Virus record (IMG/VR): IMGVR_UViG_3300011008_002687
Location: 47,270 to 111,269 of that record
Direction: 5' to 3' (one strand)
Length of the DNA stretch: 64,000 nt
DNA from: a virus
Taxonomy: Duplodnaviria > Caudoviricetes
The position numbers and the translations under genes were made by a program. The first letter of the stretch is position 1, and every line of letters starts with the position of its first letter. This document shows, in pieces, positions 1-47,468 of this stretch. Under the pieces are notes generated by a model. That model was not told the origin of the DNA. It saw nothing but the letters and a program-made list of their open reading frames with translations, and did no database searches.

Positions 1-514
1 AGATAAACTCTGCCACCCAACTGTCTGCGTCGGGGTTGCAGGTGGCTCTCACATATGGAGTAACACCGGAGTCTGTTCTATTTCGGGACAGCATATAAAA
101 AAACTGATGCTCCGTAAAGTGCGTCAGCTCGTCGAAACCGATCATTGCTATCTGTGAACCTTGCCATGATTCGCAATCATCGTCATTATTCAGATGTGCG
201 AAATTGACCGTAGCGCCTTTTGTGAAACACCAATGTAGTTTAGGTGTCTTTAGCGGATAGGCACCTTGCACGTAGCTGTAAACTTTTCTTGCACTATCCC
301 ATAAACCACCGGGGGCGGTTATCTGAGTGTACTCCTTTCGGAATATTACCGCATTGAAGTTTGAATTGTTCATGTGCCGCATTGGTTCCAGGAGTAAGCC
401 GTAGGTCTTTCCTCCACCTGCCGCTCCTCCATAAATACAAATATCTGCAGGAGTAGCCAGGAACCTTTCCTGTGGTCCTTTCTGTGGTGCCAGGATAATC
501 TTATTCTTCGCCAT
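1..514 (-). CDS. terL: Terminase large subunit, N-terminal part (runs off window)
   Basis: Translated by hand from ATG 514: MAKNKIILAPQKGPQERFLATPADICIYGGAAGGGKT (Walker A) ... IGFDELTHF (Walker B) ... RATCNPD. Confidence 0.9.
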   Translation of the reverse strand, partial: MAKNKIILAPQKGPQERFLATPADICIYGGAAGGGKTYGLLLEPMRHMNNSNFNAVIFRKEYTQITAPGGLWDSARKVYSYVQGAYPLKTPKLHWCFTKGATVNFAHLNNDDDCESWQGSQIAMIGFDELTHFTEHQFFYMLSRNRTDSGVTPYVRATCNPDADSWVAEFI

Positions 515-971
515 CGTTATCCCTCCCATTATCCGGAAGATAAATCTGCACTTCCGTATCATCACTGCCACTGTCCGGAAGTTCCATAGGACGGTCTTGC
601 CAACGGTCACGCTGTCTGTTTTTAAGCCAAAAGCACATAGCACCGACATCTGGAGGAACGTGCTTTTTCGTGTTCTCAACTCTGACAGGTTTTACACTTC
701 CGTCTTTGTCATACTCCACGATTTTCTTCTCTTCCACGTAATCATAACCCGTAGCTCTCTCATAGAGACTGCGGATCACCTTCGCATCTGATACGCCTTT
801 TCCCTTTGACAATGCCTCCGCAAATGTCGGATGATCTTTCTTCCAACGGCCTATGGTTCGTTTCGATACACCCATTGCTTCGGCTATCTCTTCCTCGGTG
901 GCACCCATAGCGGCCAAAGACCACGCCCAATCATCATGGTAGTCGGCATTGTACTTTGGTTGTGCCGCCAT
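501..971 (-). CDS. terS: Terminase small subunit (HTH)
   Basis: N-terminal HTH (EEIAEAMGVSKRTIGRWK), PPDVGAMCFWLKNR motif, directly upstream of TerL. Confidence 0.8.
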   Translation of the reverse strand: MAAQPKYNADYHDDWAWSLAAMGATEEEIAEAMGVSKRTIGRWKKDHPTFAEALSKGKGVSDAKVIRSLYERATGYDYVEEKKIVEYDKDGSVKPVRVENTKKHVPPDVGAMCFWLKNRQRDRWQDRPMELPDSGSDDTEVQIYLPDNGRDNDGEE

Positions 972-977
972 ACGCTA

Positions 978-1904
978 TTAACTCCCGGCTATATAGTCAG
1001 CGCAAAGGTACTCAATAAGCTGCCACCGGTTTTTGCTTGTTATGGTGCCTTCTTTCTCCGCTTTCTTGATTGCCTGCTGTATTACCTTAGCCGCCTCGCC
1101 TGGTACTGCGTTGCTGCCAAAGAGCTTTGTCAAGTAGGTCCAATCCTCTTCCTCATTGTACCCTGCGTCGTCCATCTTCTCGTTGACCGACTGCACCATA
1201 GAGTGAACTGCTGCTCCGACATTTCGGATGTCCGTAAATTTCTGATACTTCGCAAGTGCCTCTACGAACTCCTGGCACTGATCGTATGCCGCTACTCCGA
1301 TGATGTCCGGAGAAGTGATTTCCAGGTTCTTCACAAGTGCATCCATATCTTTGACCTGGTGCGGCAGAAACGAAAAGGTCACATTCTTAAAATCAAAAGA
1401 AACCGCAGGGCTGAGCATTTTGTCATACTCAGATAGCGGCTCTTCCAATATGTCCTTGCCTATGAAACTCTCGATCATATCATCAACATCGGTTATCATC
1501 TTCACGATTTCCCGGAGCGTCGAATCATCATCGAATCCGGAGATCGCATTGTGTGCCAACTGCTTTGCGGCAATTTGACTTCGAGATAACCCGCTTTCAT
1601 CCACAAGAGCGATAATCTCTTTCAAACCCGCCGCCCTTGCGCTTTTTATTCGGTGGTGGCCGGATATGATCTCGATTACTCCGTCCACATTCACCAGGAG
1701 AGGCAGGCTTTCAAGCTGTCCTCTCTTCGCTATGTTGGCCGTCAACTGATCCTGCATCTCATTCTTCATAATGCGGGCGTTGATGTCCTGCTCTTTCAAT
1801 TTGTCAATGGGTACCTTCGCTATTACTAAGCCGGAACCCATATCATAAATCACTTCGTAGTTTTTGCTCTGCTCTCCTGCCATTTGATTTCCCTCCTTAG
1901 CCAT
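978..1904 (-). CDS. ParB/Srx-like N-terminal domain protein
   Basis: NAR...LTANI...PLL...IISGHHRIKSA...HN motif pattern; probable start MAGEQ near 1883. Confidence 0.75.
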   Translation of the reverse strand: MAKEGNQMAGEQSKNYEVIYDMGSGLVIAKVPIDKLKEQDINARIMKNEMQDQLTANIAKRGQLESLPLLVNVDGVIEIISGHHRIKSARAAGLKEIIALVDESGLSRSQIAAKQLAHNAISGFDDDSTLREIVKMITDVDDMIESFIGKDILEEPLSEYDKMLSPAVSFDFKNVTFSFLPHQVKDMDALVKNLEITSPDIIGVAAYDQCQEFVEALAKYQKFTDIRNVGAAVHSMVQSVNEKMDDAGYNEEEDWTYLTKLFGSNAVPGEAAKVIQQAIKKAEKEGTITSKNRWQLIEYLCADYIAGS

Positions 1905-3250
1905 TCAATCATTGTCTGATGTTCGTTTCTTCCCTCAACCAGTTCAGCCTCATATGTCAGCTTATAGCCGTTCTGCTTATCCTCTGCCCTATTTACCAGT
2001 TTCATGATGCCCCGTACCTCTTTGTTTTCCGGGTACTTGGTAAGCATAGCAGTCCGCATTTTTACGACCTTTTCCCGGTCTATGGTGTCAAGGAGCGTAT
2101 CAACAAAGCCTCTGTTCTGTGCAAGCATATAGCATAACCGCCCCAAGCGGTATTTCTCGTGTGGTACCTTCATCACATACCACACAAATACGGAATCAGC
2201 CGCCATCTTCGATATGCCGAAAACTCCGGCCACATATCCGTCTATCAGCAACGCCCTGTTCCAAGTAGCTGAGGAACCGACAAAGTTATGCGTCCATAGC
2301 ACTCTGTAATACTGGGCTGTTGCCGCCTTAATCGGTATGATCTGCACCTTGCTTTCCTCGGTTATCACATGGTCCCTGGGTAGCATACTGCAGTCAAGCG
2401 GTTCCAGTTTACTCTCTGCAGGACGCTTGATCTTCTTTCCATTCGCAAGGGCCGTTGCCTCTTCCTCCCGGTTCGTAGTGATGTAAGCATTGAGGTCTGC
2501 CCTGGTACCGGACCGGGCGTATATCGTATAGCCTACTGCCTCGCCTACTTTCTTTTCCTGGTAGCAAAGCACCAATGCCTTTGCGTCCATGCACATATCA
2601 TAGAACTGCTTATGTCCTGTCTCCGGATCAAACAACTGGTACTCCGGTTCCTTCCAGGTCATTTTCCCCTGGGTGTCGTAGAACTTCTCATATCCGGAGA
2701 AGTATGTCGGCGGATTCGCTATCACGATAGCGTGGGGATCATCCAGTACCTCTTCCAAGTGTTTCCACATATCAAGCGGTCTGTAACTCATGCCATGCAG
2801 GAGATTTCTCACAACCTCAATCTGCCGATTGATGCTCTCAATATGTTCTGCTCTTCGCTCTCTGAGGTCAACAAGCATATTGTGAAAATACTCGTTGCCC
2901 GCACTCTTCGATGTTCTGAGGTACAACTGTGCGTACAATGCCGTTGCAGGATCAAGCAGCTCTTCATCACTAAAGCCTTGTGCATGAATTTCCAAAGGCT
3001 CCAATGACTGCCCTGTTATCGCATACCCAAGCACCGTAGGCATCATAGACACATCACTCGTCTCGATCTGCTCCGGCTTAAATCCATTCTGCACTGCAAG
3101 ATTGCTCATTGCGAATGTTCCGGCACAAGGCTCAACGAACCTCGTATAGCCCGACTTCGCTGCTGTCTCAATCAATTTCACGAGAAAACGCTGCTCGGAT
3201 GTTCCCAGGCACCCAAGAAACATTGCTCCCGGATTCATAAAAAATGCCAT
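1850..3250 (-). CDS. Adenine DNA methyltransferase-like domain fused to a probable Mom-like/GNAT C-terminal domain
   Basis: FVEPCAGT (SAM-binding motif I) and IANPPTY (motif IV-like); C-terminal IPIKAATAQYYRVLWTH...LLIDGYVAGVFG resembles the start of Mom-family proteins. Confidence 0.6.
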   Translation of the reverse strand: MAFFMNPGAMFLGCLGTSEQRFLVKLIETAAKSGYTRFVEPCAGTFAMSNLAVQNGFKPEQIETSDVSMMPTVLGYAITGQSLEPLEIHAQGFSDEELLDPATALYAQLYLRTSKSAGNEYFHNMLVDLRERRAEHIESINRQIEVVRNLLHGMSYRPLDMWKHLEEVLDDPHAIVIANPPTYFSGYEKFYDTQGKMTWKEPEYQLFDPETGHKQFYDMCMDAKALVLCYQEKKVGEAVGYTIYARSGTRADLNAYITTNREEEATALANGKKIKRPAESKLEPLDCSMLPRDHVITEESKVQIIPIKAATAQYYRVLWTHNFVGSSATWNRALLIDGYVAGVFGISKMAADSVFVWYVMKVPHEKYRLGRLCYMLAQNRGFVDTLLDTIDREKVVKMRTAMLTKYPENKEVRGIMKLVNRAEDKQNGYKLTYEAELVEGRNEHQTMIEWLRREIKWQESRAKTTK

Positions 3251-3288
3251 TGCCCTCTGTCACTCCTTTCTTTTTGTTCAAAATATAC

Positions 3289-3344
3289 AAAAAGCTGAGG
3301 TCAGCCAAAGTATCAACCCCGTAATTTTTGATACCCACCTCAGC
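3289..3344 (-). terminator. Long hairpin with U-tract upstream of the MTase-fusion gene
   Basis: GCTGAGGT...GTATCAA-N11-TTGATAC...ACCTCAGC-TTTTT on minus strand. Confidence 0.55.
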
Positions 3345-3353
3345 ACATTGCAC

Positions 3354-3387
3354 AAAAAAGGCACCGTACCCTGCCGGATGCGATGCC
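3354..3387 (-). terminator. Intrinsic terminator just downstream of the tRNA-like gene
   Basis: GGCATCGCATCC-GGCA-GGGTACGGTGCC followed by TTTTTT. Confidence 0.7.
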
Positions 3388-3395
3388 GTTGTTTT

Positions 3396-3467
3396 TGGAC
3401 CGGAACCCCACAATGAAGTGGAATCTCTCTGATGGAATCAGAACGTGCTACTTTACACCAGTTCCGG
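3396..3467 (-). tRNA. Atypical tRNA-Gly (anticodon TCC), CCA encoded
   Basis: Cloverleaf folded by hand: acceptor CCGGAAC/GTTCCGG, D arm GTGT-AAAGTA-GCAC, anticodon arm TTCTG-ATTCCAT-CAGAG, T arm TCCAC-TTCATT-GTGGG, discriminator T, CCA end. D loop lacks GG and T loop is 6 nt. Confidence 0.75.
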
Positions 3468-3472
3468 ATATA

Positions 3473-3988
3473 TTAAATCCCTGCCCCTACCAAATCGAAG
3501 ATGCTCATTTGCTTTGCCTCTTCCTGTGCAGGTTTCTTATTGTCAACCTTACTCTCTGCCTTTTTCTCCGCAGGCTTAGGTTTCTTTACCTTCGGCTCCG
3601 ACGGATCGGGCAGCTCTTCAATCAACTCGCCTGTGTTCTCAGCCCACCATTCTGCGAATACCGTTCTGTGACACCAATCTTCCGGGATTCTCACATCCTC
3701 ATAACAGAGCAGGACTAACTCTTTTCCTTCGTCCTGGGCTTTCTTATCGAGCCTCTCGACCATGTTTATGATCTTCTCTGTGCCGATGTCCTCTAACTTT
3801 CCGTAGTATGCAGGCTTGAAATCTTCAAGGCTCATGTTCAGCATATATCCCTTCGGTGCCAGGGAGAAACACTGCTCTCTCAGCTCGTAGCCAAGCGGCC
3901 ACTTTGGTTTCCCTATACTGATCCCTACCGGATAATACTTACCACTCTGCAATTCTTTGTTGCTGTACCGACTAACCCAAATAGCCAT
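3473..3988 (-). CDS. DUF488-like protein
   Basis: LAP...Y...LVLLCYE...WCHR motif pattern; AAGGAG RBS. Confidence 0.6.
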   Translation of the reverse strand: MAIWVSRYSNKELQSGKYYPVGISIGKPKWPLGYELREQCFSLAPKGYMLNMSLEDFKPAYYGKLEDIGTEKIINMVERLDKKAQDEGKELVLLCYEDVRIPEDWCHRTVFAEWWAENTGELIEELPDPSEPKVKKPKPAEKKAESKVDNKKPAQEEAKQMSIFDLVGAGI

Positions 3989-4025
3989 TTCAAATCACTC
4001 CTTTAACCAGTTATTCTTTGATAAT

Positions 4026-4034
4026 ATTATACCA
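4026..4034. other. Probable att core (left junction), which is also an extended -10 element TGGTATAAT on the minus strand
   Basis: ATTATACCA also at 50009..50017 after the integrase and its terminator. Confidence 0.65.
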
Positions 4035-4129
4035 CAATTTTTCCCGTTCTTAAAGTCTGCAATATGCTGAATTTTCGCCATTTGTTCAGTATTTCAGACG
4101 GCAGAAAACGATATAAAACGGTGGTATTT

Positions 4130-4147
4130 AGTAACAAATTAGAAACA
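4130..4147 (+). repeat. 18-bp direct repeat AGTAACAAATTAGAAACA, copy 1 (probable integrase arm-type site)
   Basis: Exact match at 49940..49957. Confidence 0.85.
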
Positions 4148-4164
4148 CGGTTCCGACATCCGGA

Positions 4165-5049
4165 TCAGACCTTCTTCAGGTACAGACTGGACGTGAAACC
4201 AGTGTACTTGGTGCCGTTGTAGGTCACCTGAATGTACAGCCACTTTCGGCCATTGGACTTGTCCACACTGTAGTAGCCGTAGTTCATGACCTTCAGACCA
4301 ACAGGCAGGACAACCATGGCCTTGTTTCCGGTACCGGCACCGTGCCGCATATAAACGGCAGCAGTGGTGACGTACTGTCCGGCCAGCTTCTTGTCAAAGC
4401 CCGTGGCATAGCCGGTTGCCCTGACTTCCTTCACCTTGCCGCTGGTGCTTCCGGATCCTGAACCGGATCCGCTGCCGGAACCAGTTCCGGAACCGCTGCT
4501 GGATCCACCAGCCTTGGCACCATCATCAAGTGCCATGACGGTATGACCGGAACTGACAAGCACGTCACCACGCTTCAGGTAGTCAGAAGATCCGGTGTAC
4601 TTCTTATCCGTCAGGATTTCATACTTGCCGGTCTTCTGATAGGCATTCTTCATGGTGCTGCACACCAGGGCATTTCCGGTATATTCCAGTTCCTTGACAC
4701 CGGCCAGGATAGCCAGCACGGTCTGGAAAGAACTGCAATCCGCTTCCGTGGCCACCTTGGACTTGATGTACTTGTCCACGTCATAGCCGTTTGCCTTCAG
4801 CTGATCATGCAGCGTGTTCCGCTGGGACTGGTCATAGCCTACCAGGTTGCTGTTGCACAGCTTTTCACATGCAGCGGCAGACTTTTCTGCCACAGCCGGA
4901 TCCTTCGGTCTAATGACAACCAGCCAGTCCTTGTTGTACCAGTAGGAAATCTTCACTTCAAGGCCGGTCTGGTCACCAGCCTTGGCACGTCCGTCCCATC
5001 CGGCATTGCCGTTTTCAGAAATGGACGCATGTCCGATTCTCACAGCCAT
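4165..5049 (-). CDS. Endolysin (NlpC/P60-CHAP-like catalytic domain, Gly/Ser linker, SH3b-like C-terminus)
   Basis: DCSS and GHT catalytic motifs, GSGSGSGS linker, last gene of late operon after holins. Confidence 0.8.
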   Translation of the reverse strand: MAVRIGHASISENGNAGWDGRAKAGDQTGLEVKISYWYNKDWLVVIRPKDPAVAEKSAAACEKLCNSNLVGYDQSQRNTLHDQLKANGYDVDKYIKSKVATEADCSSFQTVLAILAGVKELEYTGNALVCSTMKNAYQKTGKYEILTDKKYTGSSDYLKRGDVLVSSGHTVMALDDGAKAGGSSSGSGTGSGSGSGSGSGSTSGKVKEVRATGYATGFDKKLAGQYVTTAAVYMRHGAGTGNKAMVVLPVGLKVMNYGYYSVDKSNGRKWLYIQVTYNGTKYTGFTSSLYLKKV

Positions 5050-5059
5050 TGTGTTCACC

Positions 5060-5365
5060 TCACTTCTTTTCAAAATAAGCCATCAGCTTGTCAAAGCCGA
5101 ACATTGCAGCATAGGCCACCATGATGCCCACAATGACGAATGCAGCAACCAGATACCATGTCAGCATCATGCCATTCATCTGCCAGTAGGCAATGAACAC
5201 ACCCACCGTCAGAACAATGGACAGGCACAGCACAAAGATGTTGATCACCTTGGACGTACTAAGCCAGCTGAAGGATTTCTTCATCACTTCAGTGATGATG
5301 TTGACAAAAATGGTCAGAATTCCGACAATGATCAGAACCTGACTGATGATAGTTGAATAGTCCAT
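5060..5365 (-). CDS. Holin (3 predicted TM segments)
   Basis: Small hydrophobic protein directly upstream of endolysin. Confidence 0.7.
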   Translation of the reverse strand: MDYSTIISQVLIIVGILTIFVNIITEVMKKSFSWLSTSKVINIFVLCLSIVLTVGVFIAYWQMNGMMLTWYLVAAFVIVGIMVAYAAMFGFDKLMAYFEKK

Positions 5366-6242: not shown

Positions 6243-6512
6243 TTACACCGTCAGAAGTCCGTAGACTTCCACCAGGCCTTCCTGGGTGTCCAGGATCTGA
6301 CTTTCAAGATCAGCCTGCTTGTCAGACTGCATCTTGATGTATTCATCCTTGTCATACTGCACCAGGTCATATTCATAACCGGTGAAGCCAGGTTCATCAT
6401 CCGTGCCTTCGGTGTTGATTGCCGTCACGTTGCTGGCAATCCAAACACTGAATTCATCCACCACAAGGGGTTCAGGCTGCACGGTTGCCTGTACACGTCC
6501 ATGATTGATCAT
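6243..6512 (-). CDS. Tail-fibre-associated small protein
   Basis: Likely start MINHG after AAGG RBS; overlaps 3' end of RT. Confidence 0.55.
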   Translation of the reverse strand: MINHGRVQATVQPEPLVVDEFSVWIASNVTAINTEGTDDEPGFTGYEYDLVQYDKDEYIKMQSDKQADLESQILDTQEGLVEVYGLLTV

Positions 6513-7662
6513 TTTCCTTACTTCCTTTCTTGATGTGTTTGAAATAGTATGCATCAGCGTATGGCTGAAGCGGATCCAGATACTTTTCAGTCAGACGGTG
6601 ACTGTCACAGTGGATCAGCCAGCCCTTATAGGAAGCAATGCTGCACCACTCTGAATAGTTCATTTCCTTGCCGGATTCCACCTTCTTCAGCAATCTGGTC
6701 ATCTTGTCCTTCATCTGATTGCAAGTGGACTTTCTAAGAAGGGTGTATTCCTTGAAGATCCGGTATCCAACAAAATCCACACCACGCTGATACGTGGGGA
6801 AGATCTGATAATTCCCTTTGATCCTCAAATTCAGTTCAGACTTCAGGTAGTCACCCATAGCTGCCAGGATCCTGTGAAGTTCTTCCTTGGTACTGGCAAA
6901 CACACAGATGTCATCCATGTATCTGTAGTAGTGCTTCACGTGAAGCACTTCCTTCATGAAGTGATCAAAGTCCGACAGGTAGAAGTTGCCGTCATATTGT
7001 GAAAAGTAGTTGCCTATGGGAATGCCAATACCATCAATGAACTGTTCATCCTTTCGCTGAACAATGGCAACGGTCTTTCCCAGTGACCTGTAAAACGCTA
7101 TGTTTTCATCCGTGGCCGGACAGGTGCTGATACTGTCAATGATTTCATCAATGACCTGAAGCAGTTCAGGATCCTTGTATTTCTTCCGGTACTTTGCCTT
7201 CAGGATGTCATGGTCAATGCTTGGATAGAACTTCTGACAGTCAATCTTGCAGCAGAACCGCAATTCATCAGGCACGGTGTCCACAGCGTTCCGAAGTTTC
7301 TTGAAGGCTGCATGTATTCCTTTATTTGGTATGGCTGAATAGGTATCATCCGTAAAGTGTGCCAACAGCTGTGGTTCAATCACCTGAATGATTGCCCATT
7401 GTGCTATCCTGTCAGGGAAGAACGGCAGCTTGTAGATTTCACGGACTTTGTTTCCCTCTTTCCGAAGGAACATTTCATAGCTGGAAGTGTGATAATCATG
7501 GTTGATCATCATTTCCTGAAGCAGCCCTAAGTAGTACCAGATATTCTTTTCAATTTCCCTTACTTCTTGATACCAGCCTTTTCCTTTCTTGGCATTCTTA
7601 TATGCCCGGTACAGATTGTCCATTGAAACAATCTTTTCAAATAAATAACCATAACGCTTCAC
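6472..7662 (-). CDS. DGR reverse transcriptase
   Basis: KxR-I, PFFPDRIAQ, KIDCQKFYPSI, GIPIGNYFSQ, RYMDD, DFVGY motifs; likely GTG start 7662 (VKRYGYLFEKI) after AAAGGA; adjacent to TR. Confidence 0.95.
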   Translation of the reverse strand: MKRYGYLFEKIVSMDNLYRAYKNAKKGKGWYQEVREIEKNIWYYLGLLQEMMINHDYHTSSYEMFLRKEGNKVREIYKLPFFPDRIAQWAIIQVIEPQLLAHFTDDTYSAIPNKGIHAAFKKLRNAVDTVPDELRFCCKIDCQKFYPSIDHDILKAKYRKKYKDPELLQVIDEIIDSISTCPATDENIAFYRSLGKTVAIVQRKDEQFIDGIGIPIGNYFSQYDGNFYLSDFDHFMKEVLHVKHYYRYMDDICVFASTKEELHRILAAMGDYLKSELNLRIKGNYQIFPTYQRGVDFVGYRIFKEYTLLRKSTCNQMKDKMTRLLKKVESGKEMNYSEWCSIASYKGWLIHCDSHRLTEKYLDPLQPYADAYYFKHIKKGSKENDQSWTCTGNRAA

Positions 7663-7872
7663 AGTGTTTCCTTTGTATGCACTAAGCCGAACCTTCGACA
7701 CGCACCGGAACCGGTGCATCCTACCAGTACAGCCTGTTTAGAATTTTGTCAGTGTTTTGCCAAGCGGCACGGTGACACGGTTGCAGTTCAAACTGGATGC
7801 AGAACACGCTGCATCACTTATTTATTGAAACACCCACCCGGTGTTGACCGGATGGGTGCTTTTTAGTGCATG

Positions 7873-8113: not shown

Positions 8114-9949
8114 TTACGCAGCGTCAAGTTCCGCCTTCCTGCTGGGAATGAACACCGACCGCCCGGAGACATTCCGACCACGATAAGAAGACGAATAATG
8201 CAGATTCCGATAGAAGATCCCGGCCGCCAAGGCATTAGTCCACATACCACCGGATATAGCCACAAGCCAACCGGCGTTACCATTCCAGGTGTAATCACCA
8301 ACAGGCAGGGCACTGGTGCCGGAGAATTCCACACCAACAAAGATCCAGTCATAGTCTTCACTATAACCAAAAGCGCTGATGTAGTTGCCGCTGGTGTACG
8401 GAATACGGATGCCGGTGTCTTCATAGGGTGTAGCACCGGTGTCATCAGTAAAGCCGTGATCAGCCACATAAACAGTGCCGAACATGCCAGCCGCAAAACC
8501 GGAAGGATTCTGGATGTTGAAGCCGTCTTCCCACTTCCAGATGTTGCCCAACAGGTTTTCCTCACCACGATAGGACACAGCCTTCTGATGGTTGGCATTC
8601 TCTGCTTCACCGGAAGCGTTGCCAAGGTTCACCGTGGCACCGGTCAGTTCAGCCATGTTGGTGCTGCCGTCATCGGTCTTGTCCACAATGCCCTTGCCAA
8701 TGACGGTCTGACTGTTGAAGCTGCCGTACTCAATCAGCATCAGCAGCTGGGTACCGGCCAGCATGACAGCGTTCTGCTGTTCCCAGCCGTTGCCCATGTT
8801 GTGTGCCAGCTTTCTGGTGTTCGCCCTGGTCAGATTCTGTGTCAGGCCGGAAATGGGCTTGGCATTGGCAATGGAAGCCAGCTTGTCACCCGTGCTGACC
8901 GTGAAGTCAGCAACCTGATCATCATCCAAGATGTAGGCAGAAGCAGACACGTCATACAGGCAGCCTTCAAAGGCAGACTTGTAGATGAAGTCATCAACGG
9001 TTTTCCCCTCATTCATAGTGAACTGGGGATGGATCTTGAAGCCCTTCTTCGGCACGTCAGACACGTAGTATCTGATCTTCTTGGTCTTCCAGCCCTGGCT
9101 GACACCGTTGGCATCAAAGACTTCTTCAATGGACAGCGGCACAACCTTGTAGTAGAACTTCGGCTGTTCCACCATGACCTGAACCATGGTGCCGATAGGA
9201 TAGGTGACACCGCCTTTTTCCACGGCCTGAAGCAGTGCACCACCGGTGGTGTATGCAGTGTCACCCTGGTATGCCAGGACAACACCGTCAGCCGTCATGA
9301 TGCAGCGCTTTCTGCCGCCGAAGGCATTGATGCTGTCAAAACCAGCACCACCGGACTTGTTGACTGCACCGGCCAGACGGGTGAACTTCTTGTTGGCAAA
9401 GTCCACTTCAACACCATAGATGTCATTGTCAGAATATCCGACAAAACCCTTCAGGTCAGCAATTTCATCTTCCAGGGCATCAATGTCTTCAACCGTTGCA
9501 TAGGCACCGGAATAGACGCTGATGTCCACATCATCAGAATTGCCAACCGTGGTGTAGATCTGAATATAGGCAGAAGACACGGTGACACCTTTGTATGCAG
9601 GCATGTAGCAGAAACCGGAAGTTTCCACACACACGGCATACAGGATTTCACCAATGTCAGGATCCGTGGCATACAGGCCAAGGGAACGGAGATAGTACCC
9701 GGCAGCCAGTGCTTCATTGGTGAAGGCCGTTTCAACCTTCACAGAAGTGTGATTGGTGATGGTCACCCTGGTCACGCTGTTGGTCTGCTTGATCTGTTCC
9801 AGTGCAGTCAGACTTTCCAGCTGACTTTCTGCATAGGTCTTGGAAGACGTGCAGACCTTAGTGAAGACCAGGCTTGCCTGACCAGCAATGATCTTGGCAA
9901 CAAGTGCCTGACCTCTTGTGGTCAAATAAAGTTTGCTAAATTCAGCCAT
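8114..9949 (-). CDS. Tail fibre / receptor-binding protein, DGR target (C-terminal CLec/FGE-like domain)
   Basis: Tail-collar-like N-terminus; GNIWKWEDG and SGGxW...GRSV C-terminus containing VR; follows baseplate genes. Confidence 0.9.
   Translation of the reverse strand: MAEFSKLYLTTRGQALVAKIIAGQASLVFTKVCTSSKTYAESQLESLTALEQIKQTNSVTRVTITNHTSVKVETAFTNEALAAGYYLRSLGLYATDPDIGEILYAVCVETSGFCYMPAYKGVTVSSAYIQIYTTVGNSDDVDISVYSGAYATVEDIDALEDEIADLKGFVGYSDNDIYGVEVDFANKKFTRLAGAVNKSGGAGFDSINAFGGRKRCIMTADGVVLAYQGDTAYTTGGALLQAVEKGGVTYPIGTMVQVMVEQPKFYYKVVPLSIEEVFDANGVSQGWKTKKIRYYVSDVPKKGFKIHPQFTMNEGKTVDDFIYKSAFEGCLYDVSASAYILDDDQVADFTVSTGDKLASIANAKPISGLTQNLTRANTRKLAHNMGNGWEQQNAVMLAGTQLLMLIEYGSFNSQTVIGKGIVDKTDDGSTNMAELTGATVNLGNASGEAENANHQKAVSYRGEENLLGNIWKWEDGFNIQNPSGFAAGMFGTVYVADHGFTDDTGATPYEDTGIRIPYTSGNYISAFGYSEDYDWIFVGVEFSGTSALPVGDYTWNGNAGWLVAISGGMWTNALAAGIFYRNLHYSSSYRGRNVSGRSVFIPSRKAELDAA
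8153..8285 (-). repeat. DGR variable repeat (VR) at 3' end of tail-fibre gene
   Basis: A-to-N-only differences from TR. Confidence 0.97.
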
Positions 9950-13710: not shown

Positions 13711-14397
13711 CTATGCTGGGGGAATGACCAGCACATCACCGGCATAGATCAGATTGGGACTTCTGCCCTTGAACACGTTTGGGTTTGCATCATAGATCTT
13801 CGGATACAGGGCACCATTGCCGTAGAACTTCCGTGCTATTGCCCACAGGCAATCACCCCTGACCACCGTGTATGTGGTCTGTTGTGGTGGTGCAGGGGAT
13901 GATTCCACAGGTCTTGGTGCAGGTTCCGGTGATGCAACAACCTTCTTCTGCTGAATGGTCATTGCCACTGTTTTGGTTCCGTAGTCCTTCCACTGTTTCA
14001 GGCTGATCTTGACCTTCACATCAAAGCCAATGTCTGCACCTTCCTGGATCTGATAGTCTTCCAGGGACACCTTGATGTTGGTGTTGTACAGCGCCCTGCC
14101 ATTAGGAAAAGCCCTGGTGATGATGAACTGGAATGGTTCCTGTGTGACCTTCAGTTCTTCAAAGTAGTCCAGGAAGTAGGACGCATTCTGAAAGCCGCTG
14201 TTGTACACGGCAAAAGGATACCGCACGTTTGGCAGCAGACATTCAAATTCAATGTCCGTCAGTCCAGGCTTCTTCAGGATGTTGATTTCACCTTCATTGA
14301 TCAGTGTGACCTTCTTGTTTTTCCCATTGATCTTTATCTTGCAATCCTTGGGGGTGACAGGAAGAAGGCCCTTTTTCAGGTAAAACATATATGCCAT
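13711..14397 (-). CDS. LysM tail protein (XkdP-like)
   Basis: C-terminal YTVVRGDCLWAIA...PNLIYAGDVL. Confidence 0.88.
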   Translation of the reverse strand: MAYMFYLKKGLLPVTPKDCKIKINGKNKKVTLINEGEINILKKPGLTDIEFECLLPNVRYPFAVYNSGFQNASYFLDYFEELKVTQEPFQFIITRAFPNGRALYNTNIKVSLEDYQIQEGADIGFDVKVKISLKQWKDYGTKTVAMTIQQKKVVASPEPAPRPVESSPAPPQQTTYTVVRGDCLWAIARKFYGNGALYPKIYDANPNVFKGRSPNLIYAGDVLVIPPA

Positions 14398-46988: not shown

Positions 46989-47468
46989 TCACTTAATAGT
47001 GTAGAGGGTGTCAACTGCTTCCTTCCGGATCAAAAACATCACGTTTTCAACAGTCTGATCTTCACTGTGCTTCACAATGTCCTGTGCAATTTCATAGATC
47101 CAGTGAACTGTAGGATCCTGCACACCAACAGTGTTCAGCATGAAGTTGTAGTCAGACACGCTGCCACAGGTGTACAGGTTGTGCTTGATGCACATGCAGC
47201 GGATGCTGTCCGGATCCCACTTGGTTTCTTCAATGATTTCCGGTTCCTGTTCAATGTAGATCCGGATGGTCTTGATCCCTTTGCCTTCCTGGATGTTCAG
47301 TTCCAGGGAAGTGTTCAGGTCACTGATCCAGCTGTTGTTTCCTTCGGCAGCGCTCATGAAGATAGGGTATCCTGCATTTTCACTGGCCTTATAGTCCTTT
47401 TCCCAGTCTGTGGGGAAAAGTCTTTCAGCTTCCTTCCAAGCTGCTTCACGGTTCCTGACTTTAATCAT
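46989..47468 (-). CDS. First gene of early lytic operon, hypothetical
   Basis: Follows leftward promoter; RBS AAAGGAATGTGA. Confidence 0.6.
   Translation of the reverse strand: MIKVRNREAAWKEAERLFPTDWEKDYKASENAGYPIFMSAAEGNNSWISDLNTSLELNIQEGKGIKTIRIYIEQEPEIIEETKWDPDSIRCMCIKHNLYTCGSVSDYNFMLNTVGVQDPTVHWIYEIAQDIVKHSEDQTVENVMFLIRKEAVDTLYTIK

Follow-up and report, generated by a model that had tools for sequence, protein, structure and literature searches.

What does a tRNA-shaped gene do in a phage genome if it carries the bases that a glycyl-tRNA synthetase (GlyRS) reads and lacks those that shape a translating tRNA? The question is raised by a 64,000-nt stretch of DNA, referred to here as the window, covering positions 47,270–111,269 of the virus record IMGVR_UViG_3300011008_002687 (Caudoviricetes). 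The record is a 111-kb provirus of a gut bacterium and contains no host tRNAs or GlyRS. A 72-nt tRNA-Gly-like gene, the element of this study, lies on the minus strand at 3396–3467, with its 5′ end at 3467, the anticodon UCC at 3434–3436, U73 at 3399, and an encoded CCA at 3396–3398. Downstream on the same strand, at 1850–3250, is the gene for a 466-amino-acid enzyme with a Dam-like and a GNAT domain. We suggest, with a probability of about 0.6, that the element is a private, non-translational glycyl donor for this enzyme, which would modify phage DNA.

A tRNA-Gly-like RNA under selection

The acceptor stem of the element has 7 bp (CCGGAAC/GUUCCGG) and begins with the pairs C1:G72, C2:G71, and G3:C70. 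U8 and G9 lead to a D stem of 4 bp (GUGU/GCAC, with one U-G pair), closed by the 6-nt loop AAAGUA, from which GG is absent. The anticodon stem (UUCUG/CAGAG, 5 bp) carries the loop AUUCCAU, that is, A32, U33, UCC, and A37, and is followed by a 4-nt variable region (AGAU) and a T stem of 5 bp (UCCAC/GUGGG). In the 6-nt T loop, UUCAUU, U replaces A58, and the 3′ end is U73 followed by the encoded CCA. The features listed by an earlier, sequence-only reading of this DNA (U73, C2:G71, G3:C70, C35/C36, CCA, four paired stems, no GG, a 6-nt T loop, A32, and C1:G72) are all present. The elbow bases of an elongator tRNA, G18 G19 and a 7-nt T54-Psi55-C56-R57-A58 loop, are lacking. The minimum free energy fold is exactly the cloverleaf, at −26.2 kcal/mol (z = −3.4), and none of 200 shuffles folded as well. 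A coding-sequence reading of the same letters was rejected: the overlapping open reading frames at 3383–3718 (plus strand) and 3168–3413 (minus strand) are short, and the substitutions follow an RNA-stem pattern.

Standard tools miss the element, as the sequence-only reading had foreseen. With default settings, ARAGORN finds no tRNA in the 64-kb window or in the whole 111-kb record, and the Rfam tRNA model RF00005 has no match to the element at E ≤ 10 in a 261-nt search, nor to five homologous loci at E ≤ 1. With its threshold lowered to 95% of the default, ARAGORN calls the element as tRNA-Gly(tcc), its sole call in 111 kb, while in default mode it calls the element in 19 of 57 homologous loci. 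Our own covariance model for the Gly type, R1, scores the element at 80.8 bits. Relaxed Rfam searches also gave sub-threshold 'Plastid-ycf2 5′UTR' matches (25–35 bits) at three loci (L060, L091, and L109); these lie on the antisense strand of the tRNA genes and are an artefact of such searches.

Homologues of the enzyme were found at 57 IMG/VR loci (76–91% identity) and at 18 loci in genomes of Lachnospiraceae (Blautia, Acetatifactor), Oscillospiraceae, and other Clostridia (up to 96% identity). A Gly-type prophage (L123) is carried by Blautia fusiformis CLA-AA-H217. The element is present at every one of these 76–96%-identity loci that has enough upstream DNA. Forty distinct versions, the window copy and 39 homologues, were aligned with MAFFT (alignment A4), and under a cloverleaf structure that we specified, standard pairs fill 99.8% of the 800 pair cells. 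Both sides have changed in 13 of the 20 pairs, with 39 extra pair types, and these values for pairing and covariation were reached by none of 500 shuffles. In a control in which the partners were slid by 1–3 columns, pairing was 21–50%. Covariation is seen in all five anticodon-stem pairs and in four of four T-stem pairs, and the T stem of the window copy differs from that of its nearest relative (L117) with full compensation. The element is far more diverged than the flanking genes.

Particular bases have nevertheless stayed fixed. Pairs 1–4 (C:G, C:G, G:C, and G:C), U8, G10, C35, C36, A44/G45, U73, C74, and A76 are invariant, and position 25, the partner of G10, never changes to a purine (37 rows have C and 3 have U). 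U, C, and G all occur at position 34, where close relatives switch among the anticodons UCC, CCC, and GCC, and U, G, and A occur at position 33. The extra T-stem C of the window copy is absent from 37 of the 39 homologues, which have a 4-bp T stem and a 7-nt (rarely longer) loop; the T loop of most homologues is UUCAUYG. Likewise, 37 of 39 have a 5-nt D loop, and most elements are 70 nt long.

The element is a real RNA under selection, and its homologues exclude chance. That scanners miss it could be taken as a sign that it is a tRNA pseudogene in decay, what is left of an attachment site, or a cloverleaf that arose by chance, but we give this explanation virtually no weight. A pseudogene or attachment-site remnant was rejected on the covariation evidence, namely the compensatory changes in 13 of 20 pairs and the 99.8% pairing; furthermore, the element holds a fixed operon position in phages of several bacterial families and ARAGORN makes no other sub-threshold call in 111 kb. 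The sequence-only reading had argued that the gene is not a decayed tRNA and had named covariation across homologues as a check. This check has now been run on 40 versions and shows no unconstrained decay of the stems: they remain paired through compensatory changes while the synthetase-facing bases are fixed, and decay is therefore excluded. Judged from these sequences, it is the fold and the synthetase-read bases that are under selection, not decoding.

Two loci carry tandem Gly-type copies, at 2722–2795 and 2859–2929 of L048 and at 125–197 and 202–272 of L126. The first copy of L048 has the anticodon GCC, G1:C72, and a canonical T loop, and the second has A33 and belongs to the CCG type.

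Linkage to a Dam-like/GNAT enzyme and its sister clades

Is the element tied to the enzyme gene, or do the two merely share a neighbourhood? An RNA-only pattern scan of IMG/VR, using the acceptor and D-stem start, a gap, and the acceptor 3′ end with CCA, gave 60 loci. The enzyme gene is downstream on the same strand within 1.5 kb in 55 of them, and the other five have too little DNA; none of the 60 has room for the enzyme and lacks it. Some relatives retain the tRNA even though 0.4–1.1 kb with small genes separates it from the enzyme. Of 401 genomes sampled from the phylum of the host, just two contain PF22559, one of the two enzyme domains. The linkage of tRNA and enzyme is strict in both directions.

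The enzyme matches PF22555 (E = 7.4e-72), labelled 'phage DNA adenine methylase-like' in Pfam, and PF22559 (E = 1.7e-34), labelled 'phage GNAT-like'. The N-terminal domain has a Dam-like adenine-methylase fold with the motif NPPTY, and the C-terminal domain has a GNAT fold. In an AlphaFold2 model of the enzyme, with a predicted local distance difference test score (pLDDT) of 92.5, the N-terminal domain aligns with Escherichia coli Dam at Z = 13.9 over 195 residues, and the C-terminal domain aligns with Mu Mom (8bv8) at Z = 10.6, with a root mean square deviation of 3.2 Å over 137 residues. A phmmer search against PDB sequences had no matches. By eye, the acetyl-CoA motif Q/R-x-x-G-x-G/A is not conserved in the enzyme family, which has RL-x-RL instead, although this is weak evidence.

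A HMMER search of 1.8 billion representatives gave 819 relatives of the enzyme, mostly full-length fusions at 29–46% identity. Loci were fetched for several clades, those of distant enzymes from searches of IMG/VR, metagenome, and GenBank phage sequences, and a 13-sequence enzyme subset (A3) was used to find related loci; viral scans with P0162 and P0139 gave no matches. Of the 210 loci in which the enzyme start is known, with enzymes down to 26% identity, 201 have a same-strand tRNA directly upstream by ARAGORN at 90% of its threshold. The nine exceptions are Gly-type copies missed by ARAGORN and found by regular expression or R1, loci cut upstream, and one locus (L173) in which the tRNA appears at a lower threshold only. 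Cultured phages with the enzyme at 23–58% identity have a same-strand upstream tRNA too.

The upstream tRNAs of the distant enzymes (about 23–60% identity) are not all of one kind: they are of Gly, Lys, Arg, and Pro types. By locus, the Arg-type partners have the anticodons UCG (62), UCU (2), CCG (1), and GCG (1); the Lys type has CUU (57) and UUU (1); the Gly type has UCC (51), CCC (13), and GCC (1); and the Pro type has UGG (3) and CGG (2). A few other partners have 6- or 8-nt anticodon loops. Within each class, anticodon positions 35 and 36 are fixed and 34 is free, and the synthetase determinants, in the sets given in PMC9976931, are kept (A20, C35, and G/U36 in Arg; A73 in Lys and Pro). 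The acceptor end is shared across classes. All but five of 201 partner tRNAs (196/201) start with CCG and end with CGG-N73-C, and C1:G72, C2:G71, and G3:C70 are common to four amino-acid classes with otherwise unrelated bodies. The Gly-type model R1 detects none of the Lys, Arg, or Pro partners, and only the acceptor end is common to them.

Host tRNAs look different. They were read from Blautia/Lachnospiraceae genomes that carry related prophages, and Blautia tRNA-Gly, tRNA-Lys, and tRNA-Arg have G1 and normal D and T loops, while only tRNA-Pro starts with C. U33 is present in 48 of 48 host tRNAs checked. It is absent from 24 of 27 distinct Arg-type partners, which have C, A, or G, and from three of 34 distinct Gly-type partners, plus 74-nt variants; the window copy itself has U33.

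In a quick maximum-likelihood tree of 36 enzyme representatives, the tRNA type follows the enzyme clade, with 8 label changes against 20.8 in shuffles. Support is 98 for the Arg clade, 99 for the Pro clade, and 100 for the Gly clade, which is nested in a Lys grade. Since related sequences share labels, the tree shows clustering, not co-evolution as such. The order DUF488-like gene, tRNA, enzyme, ParB-like gene, beside the terminase genes, is seen in each of the classes. In most of them the enzyme is followed by a ParB_N-type gene, and the DUF488 matches upstream of Lys, Arg, and Pro tRNAs are weak, only one reaching the Pfam cut-off.

The cassette is present in cultured phages (FP_Brigit, Jeon and its relatives, and ValentiniPuff), and hence is amenable to testing. 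Faecalibacterium phage FP_Brigit (NC_047909.1) has a tRNA-Lys(CUU) at 2262–2338 of the locus L242, which is 13917–13993 of the record, that starts CCGCCGA and is found by ARAGORN at default. The gene gp20 precedes this tRNA by 4 nt, and the Dam-like/GNAT gene gp21 follows it at a distance of 162 nt; the tRNA is unannotated in RefSeq. A methionine adenosyltransferase gene is found 2 kb upstream in this phage. In Microbacterium phage ValentiniPuff (MH825712.1), the enzyme is gene 1 at the left genome end (10–1446 of L243), and an Arg-type tRNA with the 6-nt anticodon loop CUCGUU (1855–1927 of L245) is located some 90 nt short of the right end; enzyme and tRNA are thus adjacent only in the circular or concatemeric form. 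Mycobacterium phage Jeon and its relatives have an annotated tRNA-Gly(tcc) that starts with G1; in Jeon (NC_070934.1), it lies at 2306–2377 of the locus L244. The annotated start of Jeon gene 68, the enzyme homologue (coding sequence 2360–3748), overlaps this tRNA by 18 nt, and was probably called too far upstream.

Proposed function and the alternatives

The gene, the selection on its fold, its linkage to the enzyme, and the retention and loss of particular bases are observed. What could such an RNA be for? Of the glycine identity elements read by bacterial GlyRS (PMC9976931), the element has U73, C2:G71, C35, C36, G3:C70, and (G10-Y25):G45, and these are invariant in the 40 versions except at position 25, which stays Y. 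Lachnospiraceae hosts are without the GlyRS alpha-subunit family PF02091, and therefore their GlyRS should be of the dimeric type. A precedent for the use of the glycyl group exists. Mu Mom, a GNAT, transfers glycine from Gly-tRNAGly to N6 of adenine in double-stranded DNA, and a rearrangement on the base follows (Silva et al., Nat Commun 2026, PMC13219725). All three E. coli tRNA-Gly isoacceptors work with Mom, Gly-tRNAAla fails, and the terminal riboadenosine is essential; phage tRNA genes are unmentioned in that paper (PMC13219725).

We infer that the element is expressed, processed, and charged, that it escapes EF-Tu, and that it serves as a donor for a reaction on DNA, and propose the following mechanism. 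The element would be transcribed late together with the DUF488-like gene, a step for which the gene order is what the sequence offers. It would then be excised by RNase P and trimmed at the 3′ end, where CCA is already encoded, and charged with glycine by the host dimeric GlyRS, reading U73, C2:G71, G3:C70, C35, and C36. The GNAT domain of the 466-amino-acid enzyme may take the glycyl group from the CCA end while the Dam-like domain holds a flipped-out adenine of the phage DNA, with glycine going to N6, as for Mu Mom. The missing elbow (no G18G19, a short T arm), the free position 33, and C1:G72 would keep the element out of the ribosomal pool, and C1-C2-G3, with its CCG/CGG end, may be the mark by which the enzyme or a partner protein recognises it. 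A non-translational aminoacyl carrier was also what the sequence-only reading proposed, and it is the best-supported reading, given the two-way linkage, the sister tRNAs with CCG/CGG ends, the loss of U33, and the Mom precedent.

Could the element instead be an odd but working translational tRNA, decoding GGA/GGG in late genes or replacing a host tRNA-Gly hit by defence? Many phages encode tRNAs, the window copy has an anticodon loop of normal form (U33, UCC, A37), the Arg and Pro partners of the sister enzymes look canonical, and defence systems that strike tRNA-Gly exist, FaRel2 being an example (PMC11559606). We nonetheless consider a translational role unlikely. There is no G18G19, and the T arm of 4–5 bp has a 6–7-nt loop without A58. 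Several close relatives have replaced U33, some partners have 6- or 8-nt anticodon loops, and the anticodon of close relatives switches among UCC, CCC, and GCC. The amino-acid type changes with the enzyme clade, not with the host, the RNA-only scan never found the element without the enzyme, and a CCG/CGG end across four amino-acid types has no translational rationale.

Alternatively, the RNA might act in cis, as RNase P/Z punctuation between the DUF488 and enzyme messages or as a sensor that ties enzyme expression to charging or amino-acid supply. tRNA-like punctuation is known from other systems, and the start of the element 5 nt past a stop codon and the two terminator-like hairpins before the enzyme gene would suit such a role. 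We regard it as quite unlikely: punctuation needs no fixed 35/36, discriminator, CCA, or class-specific determinants, all of which are conserved, and the tRNA is kept despite the 0.4–1.1 kb with extra small genes that can precede the enzyme. It is also conceivable that the element is the substrate or a structural partner of the enzyme, as in a TacT/AtaT-like acylation of aminoacyl-tRNA or an enzyme–ParB scaffold. Charged tRNAs are acetylated by GNAT toxins, which recognise U73 and G71 in tRNA-Gly (PMC9976931), and linkage alone is silent on the direction of a reaction. However, the Dam-like domain and the ParB/terminase context point to a DNA target, a toxin role is unfit for a late packaging-linked operon, and no antitoxin-like neighbour is seen, which makes this explanation very unlikely.

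Several observations weigh against a glycyl donor for DNA modification. C1:G72, which the sequence-only reading listed among the altered features, is more than a neutral detail. G1:C72 is described as the only acceptor-stem pair in the tRNA-Gly consensus and as important for glycylation by E. coli and Thermus thermophilus GlyRS (PMC9976931), whereas C1:G72 is found in 40 of 40 versions and the host tRNA-Gly genes have G1. The reversed pair argues against easy charging, which may be poor. Two terminator-like hairpins separate the tRNA from the enzyme gene. In a fold of 3245–3400 (minus strand), a GC-rich hairpin at 3360–3387, 8 nt past CCA, is followed by U6 at 3354–3359, and this hairpin-U6 unit (3354–3387) looks like an intrinsic terminator; a second hairpin with a U tract, at 3288–3344 on the same strand, stands before the enzyme gene's ribosome-binding site. 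Co-expression of the tRNA and the enzyme may not follow a fixed ratio. The match to Mom (Z = 10.6) is no better than those to ordinary acetyl-CoA GNATs (Z = 10–11.6), hhalign of the PF22559 GNAT domain with Mom gives a probability of 0.2%, with no sequence or profile similarity, and Mu Mom matches PF25680, while the partner enzyme matches PF22555 and PF22559 only. The Dam-like domain keeps a motif I glycine and an acidic residue after strand 2, with only the proline of NPPTY invariant, and it might use S-adenosylmethionine. Finally, the CCG rule is not universal, since Jeon tRNA-Gly has G1 and one tandem copy in L048 starts GCG, and the Arg and Pro partners look largely canonical (D-loop GG, UUCRA T loop), and so could also serve translation.

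How does a private glycyl donor compare with known systems? Mom (PF25680, PDB 8bv8) is also a late phage enzyme with a GNAT fold, and in both cases a glycine tRNA is the likely donor and DNA adenine the likely target. However, Mom is served by any host tRNA-Gly isoacceptor and comes without a tRNA gene, while the enzyme of the window is fused to a Dam-like domain and is accompanied by DUF488-like and ParB-like genes and a private tRNA, and has sister clades with Lys, Arg, and Pro. The nearest analogue of the tRNA is the staphylococcal non-proteinogenic tRNA-Gly. These tRNAs (NP1, NP2, and NEW) have no G18G19, bind EF-Tu weakly, and are donors to the FemXAB peptidoglycan ligases (PMC4574755). 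Like the element, they are tRNA-Gly(UCC) without G18G19; the normal GlyRS charges them, and their glycine presumably goes to a GNAT-fold aminoacyl transferase instead of the ribosome. They are chromosomal host genes with otherwise full-size arms and measured weak EF-Tu binding, whereas the element is phage-encoded, measures only 70–72 nt, combines C1:G72 with an encoded CCA, and is tied to the gene of a DNA enzyme. The analogy, which the sequence-only reading had drawn, holds for the missing G18G19 and the kept glycine identity; for weak EF-Tu binding, it goes back to data on the staphylococcal tRNAs alone. The element resembles ordinary phage tRNAs as a tRNA-shaped gene in a phage genome, but neither RF00005 nor ARAGORN at default recognises it, it is bound to a single enzyme gene, and its amino-acid type tracks the enzyme clade. 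U73 and G71, the bases read by TacT, are both kept, but TacT acetylates charged tRNA and blocks translation, while the context of the element points to DNA.

A broader proposal, which we make tentatively and hold at somewhat less than even odds, is that non-translational tRNAs of this sort form a widespread class of viral genes, as yet undescribed. Every clade of Dam-like/GNAT enzymes would then have a tRNA to itself (Gly, Lys, Arg, or Pro), with C1-C2-G3 at the acceptor end as its mark; host synthetases would charge it, and the enzyme would place the amino acid on adenines of the phage DNA. PubMed Central (PMC) and bioRxiv full-text searches found Mom papers, but none on phage-encoded tRNAs tied to a DNA-modifying GNAT and none on PF22555/PF22559. 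The element would join two known kinds of system, non-proteinogenic tRNAs and tRNA-dependent DNA modification, the latter so far demonstrated for Mom alone, with tRNA-Gly borrowed from the host. If the glycyl-donor reading is right, the same chemistry would exist in a second, unrelated enzyme family with the phage's own minimal tRNA, and the element would be the first virus-encoded tRNA known to serve beyond translation or counter-defence. The Lys, Arg, and Pro sister systems predict undescribed DNA base modifications, which would be amino-acid-decorated bases, some of them positively charged. Such tRNAs are missed or mis-scored by scanners, the RefSeq record of FP_Brigit lacks its tRNA-Lys, and the CCG/CGG acceptor end is a natural example of a tRNA that may stay outside the translational pool, which is relevant to orthogonal tRNA design.

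Neighbouring genes

A 222-nt gap between genes of the coding strand opens with the element, which begins 5 nt past the stop of the DUF488-like gene (171 amino acids; 3473–3988, minus strand), which matches PF22751 DUF488-N3a at E = 7.5e-4, below the Pfam cut-off, and phrog_2450. This gene is probably co-transcribed with the tRNA. A promoter-like site stands ahead of it at 4026–4053 (minus strand), with TTAAGA, a 16-nt spacer, and a TG-extended TATAAT; a consensus scan scores it at 10/12, as a pattern match only. On the other side, the end of the enzyme gene is overlapped by a gene at 978–1904 (minus strand) that resembles the ParB N-terminal domain (PF02195 at 1.4e-4, below the Pfam cut-off; phrog_7405 at 3.8e-78). 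The genes for the small and large terminase subunits (2–971, minus strand; phrog_309, phrog_979, and PF03237) are directly downstream of the cassette.

Further packaging-type genes are found in the window beyond 24 kb. In the region covered by 3989–4171 and 4165–5073 on the minus strand, an endolysin-like gene (PF25309), which closes a set of tail, tail-fibre, and reverse-transcriptase genes, lies some 180 nt away from the promoter-like site that belongs to the DUF488/tRNA/enzyme/ParB/terminase block. The reverse transcriptase gene (415 amino acids; 6472–7719, minus strand) lies beside a tail-fibre gene (8114–9949, minus strand). Directly upstream of the reverse transcriptase gene, and slightly overlapping it, is an RT-17 RNA at 7673–7774 (minus strand; Rfam, 50.9 bits against a gathering score of 40.4), which may be the template-region RNA of a retroelement.

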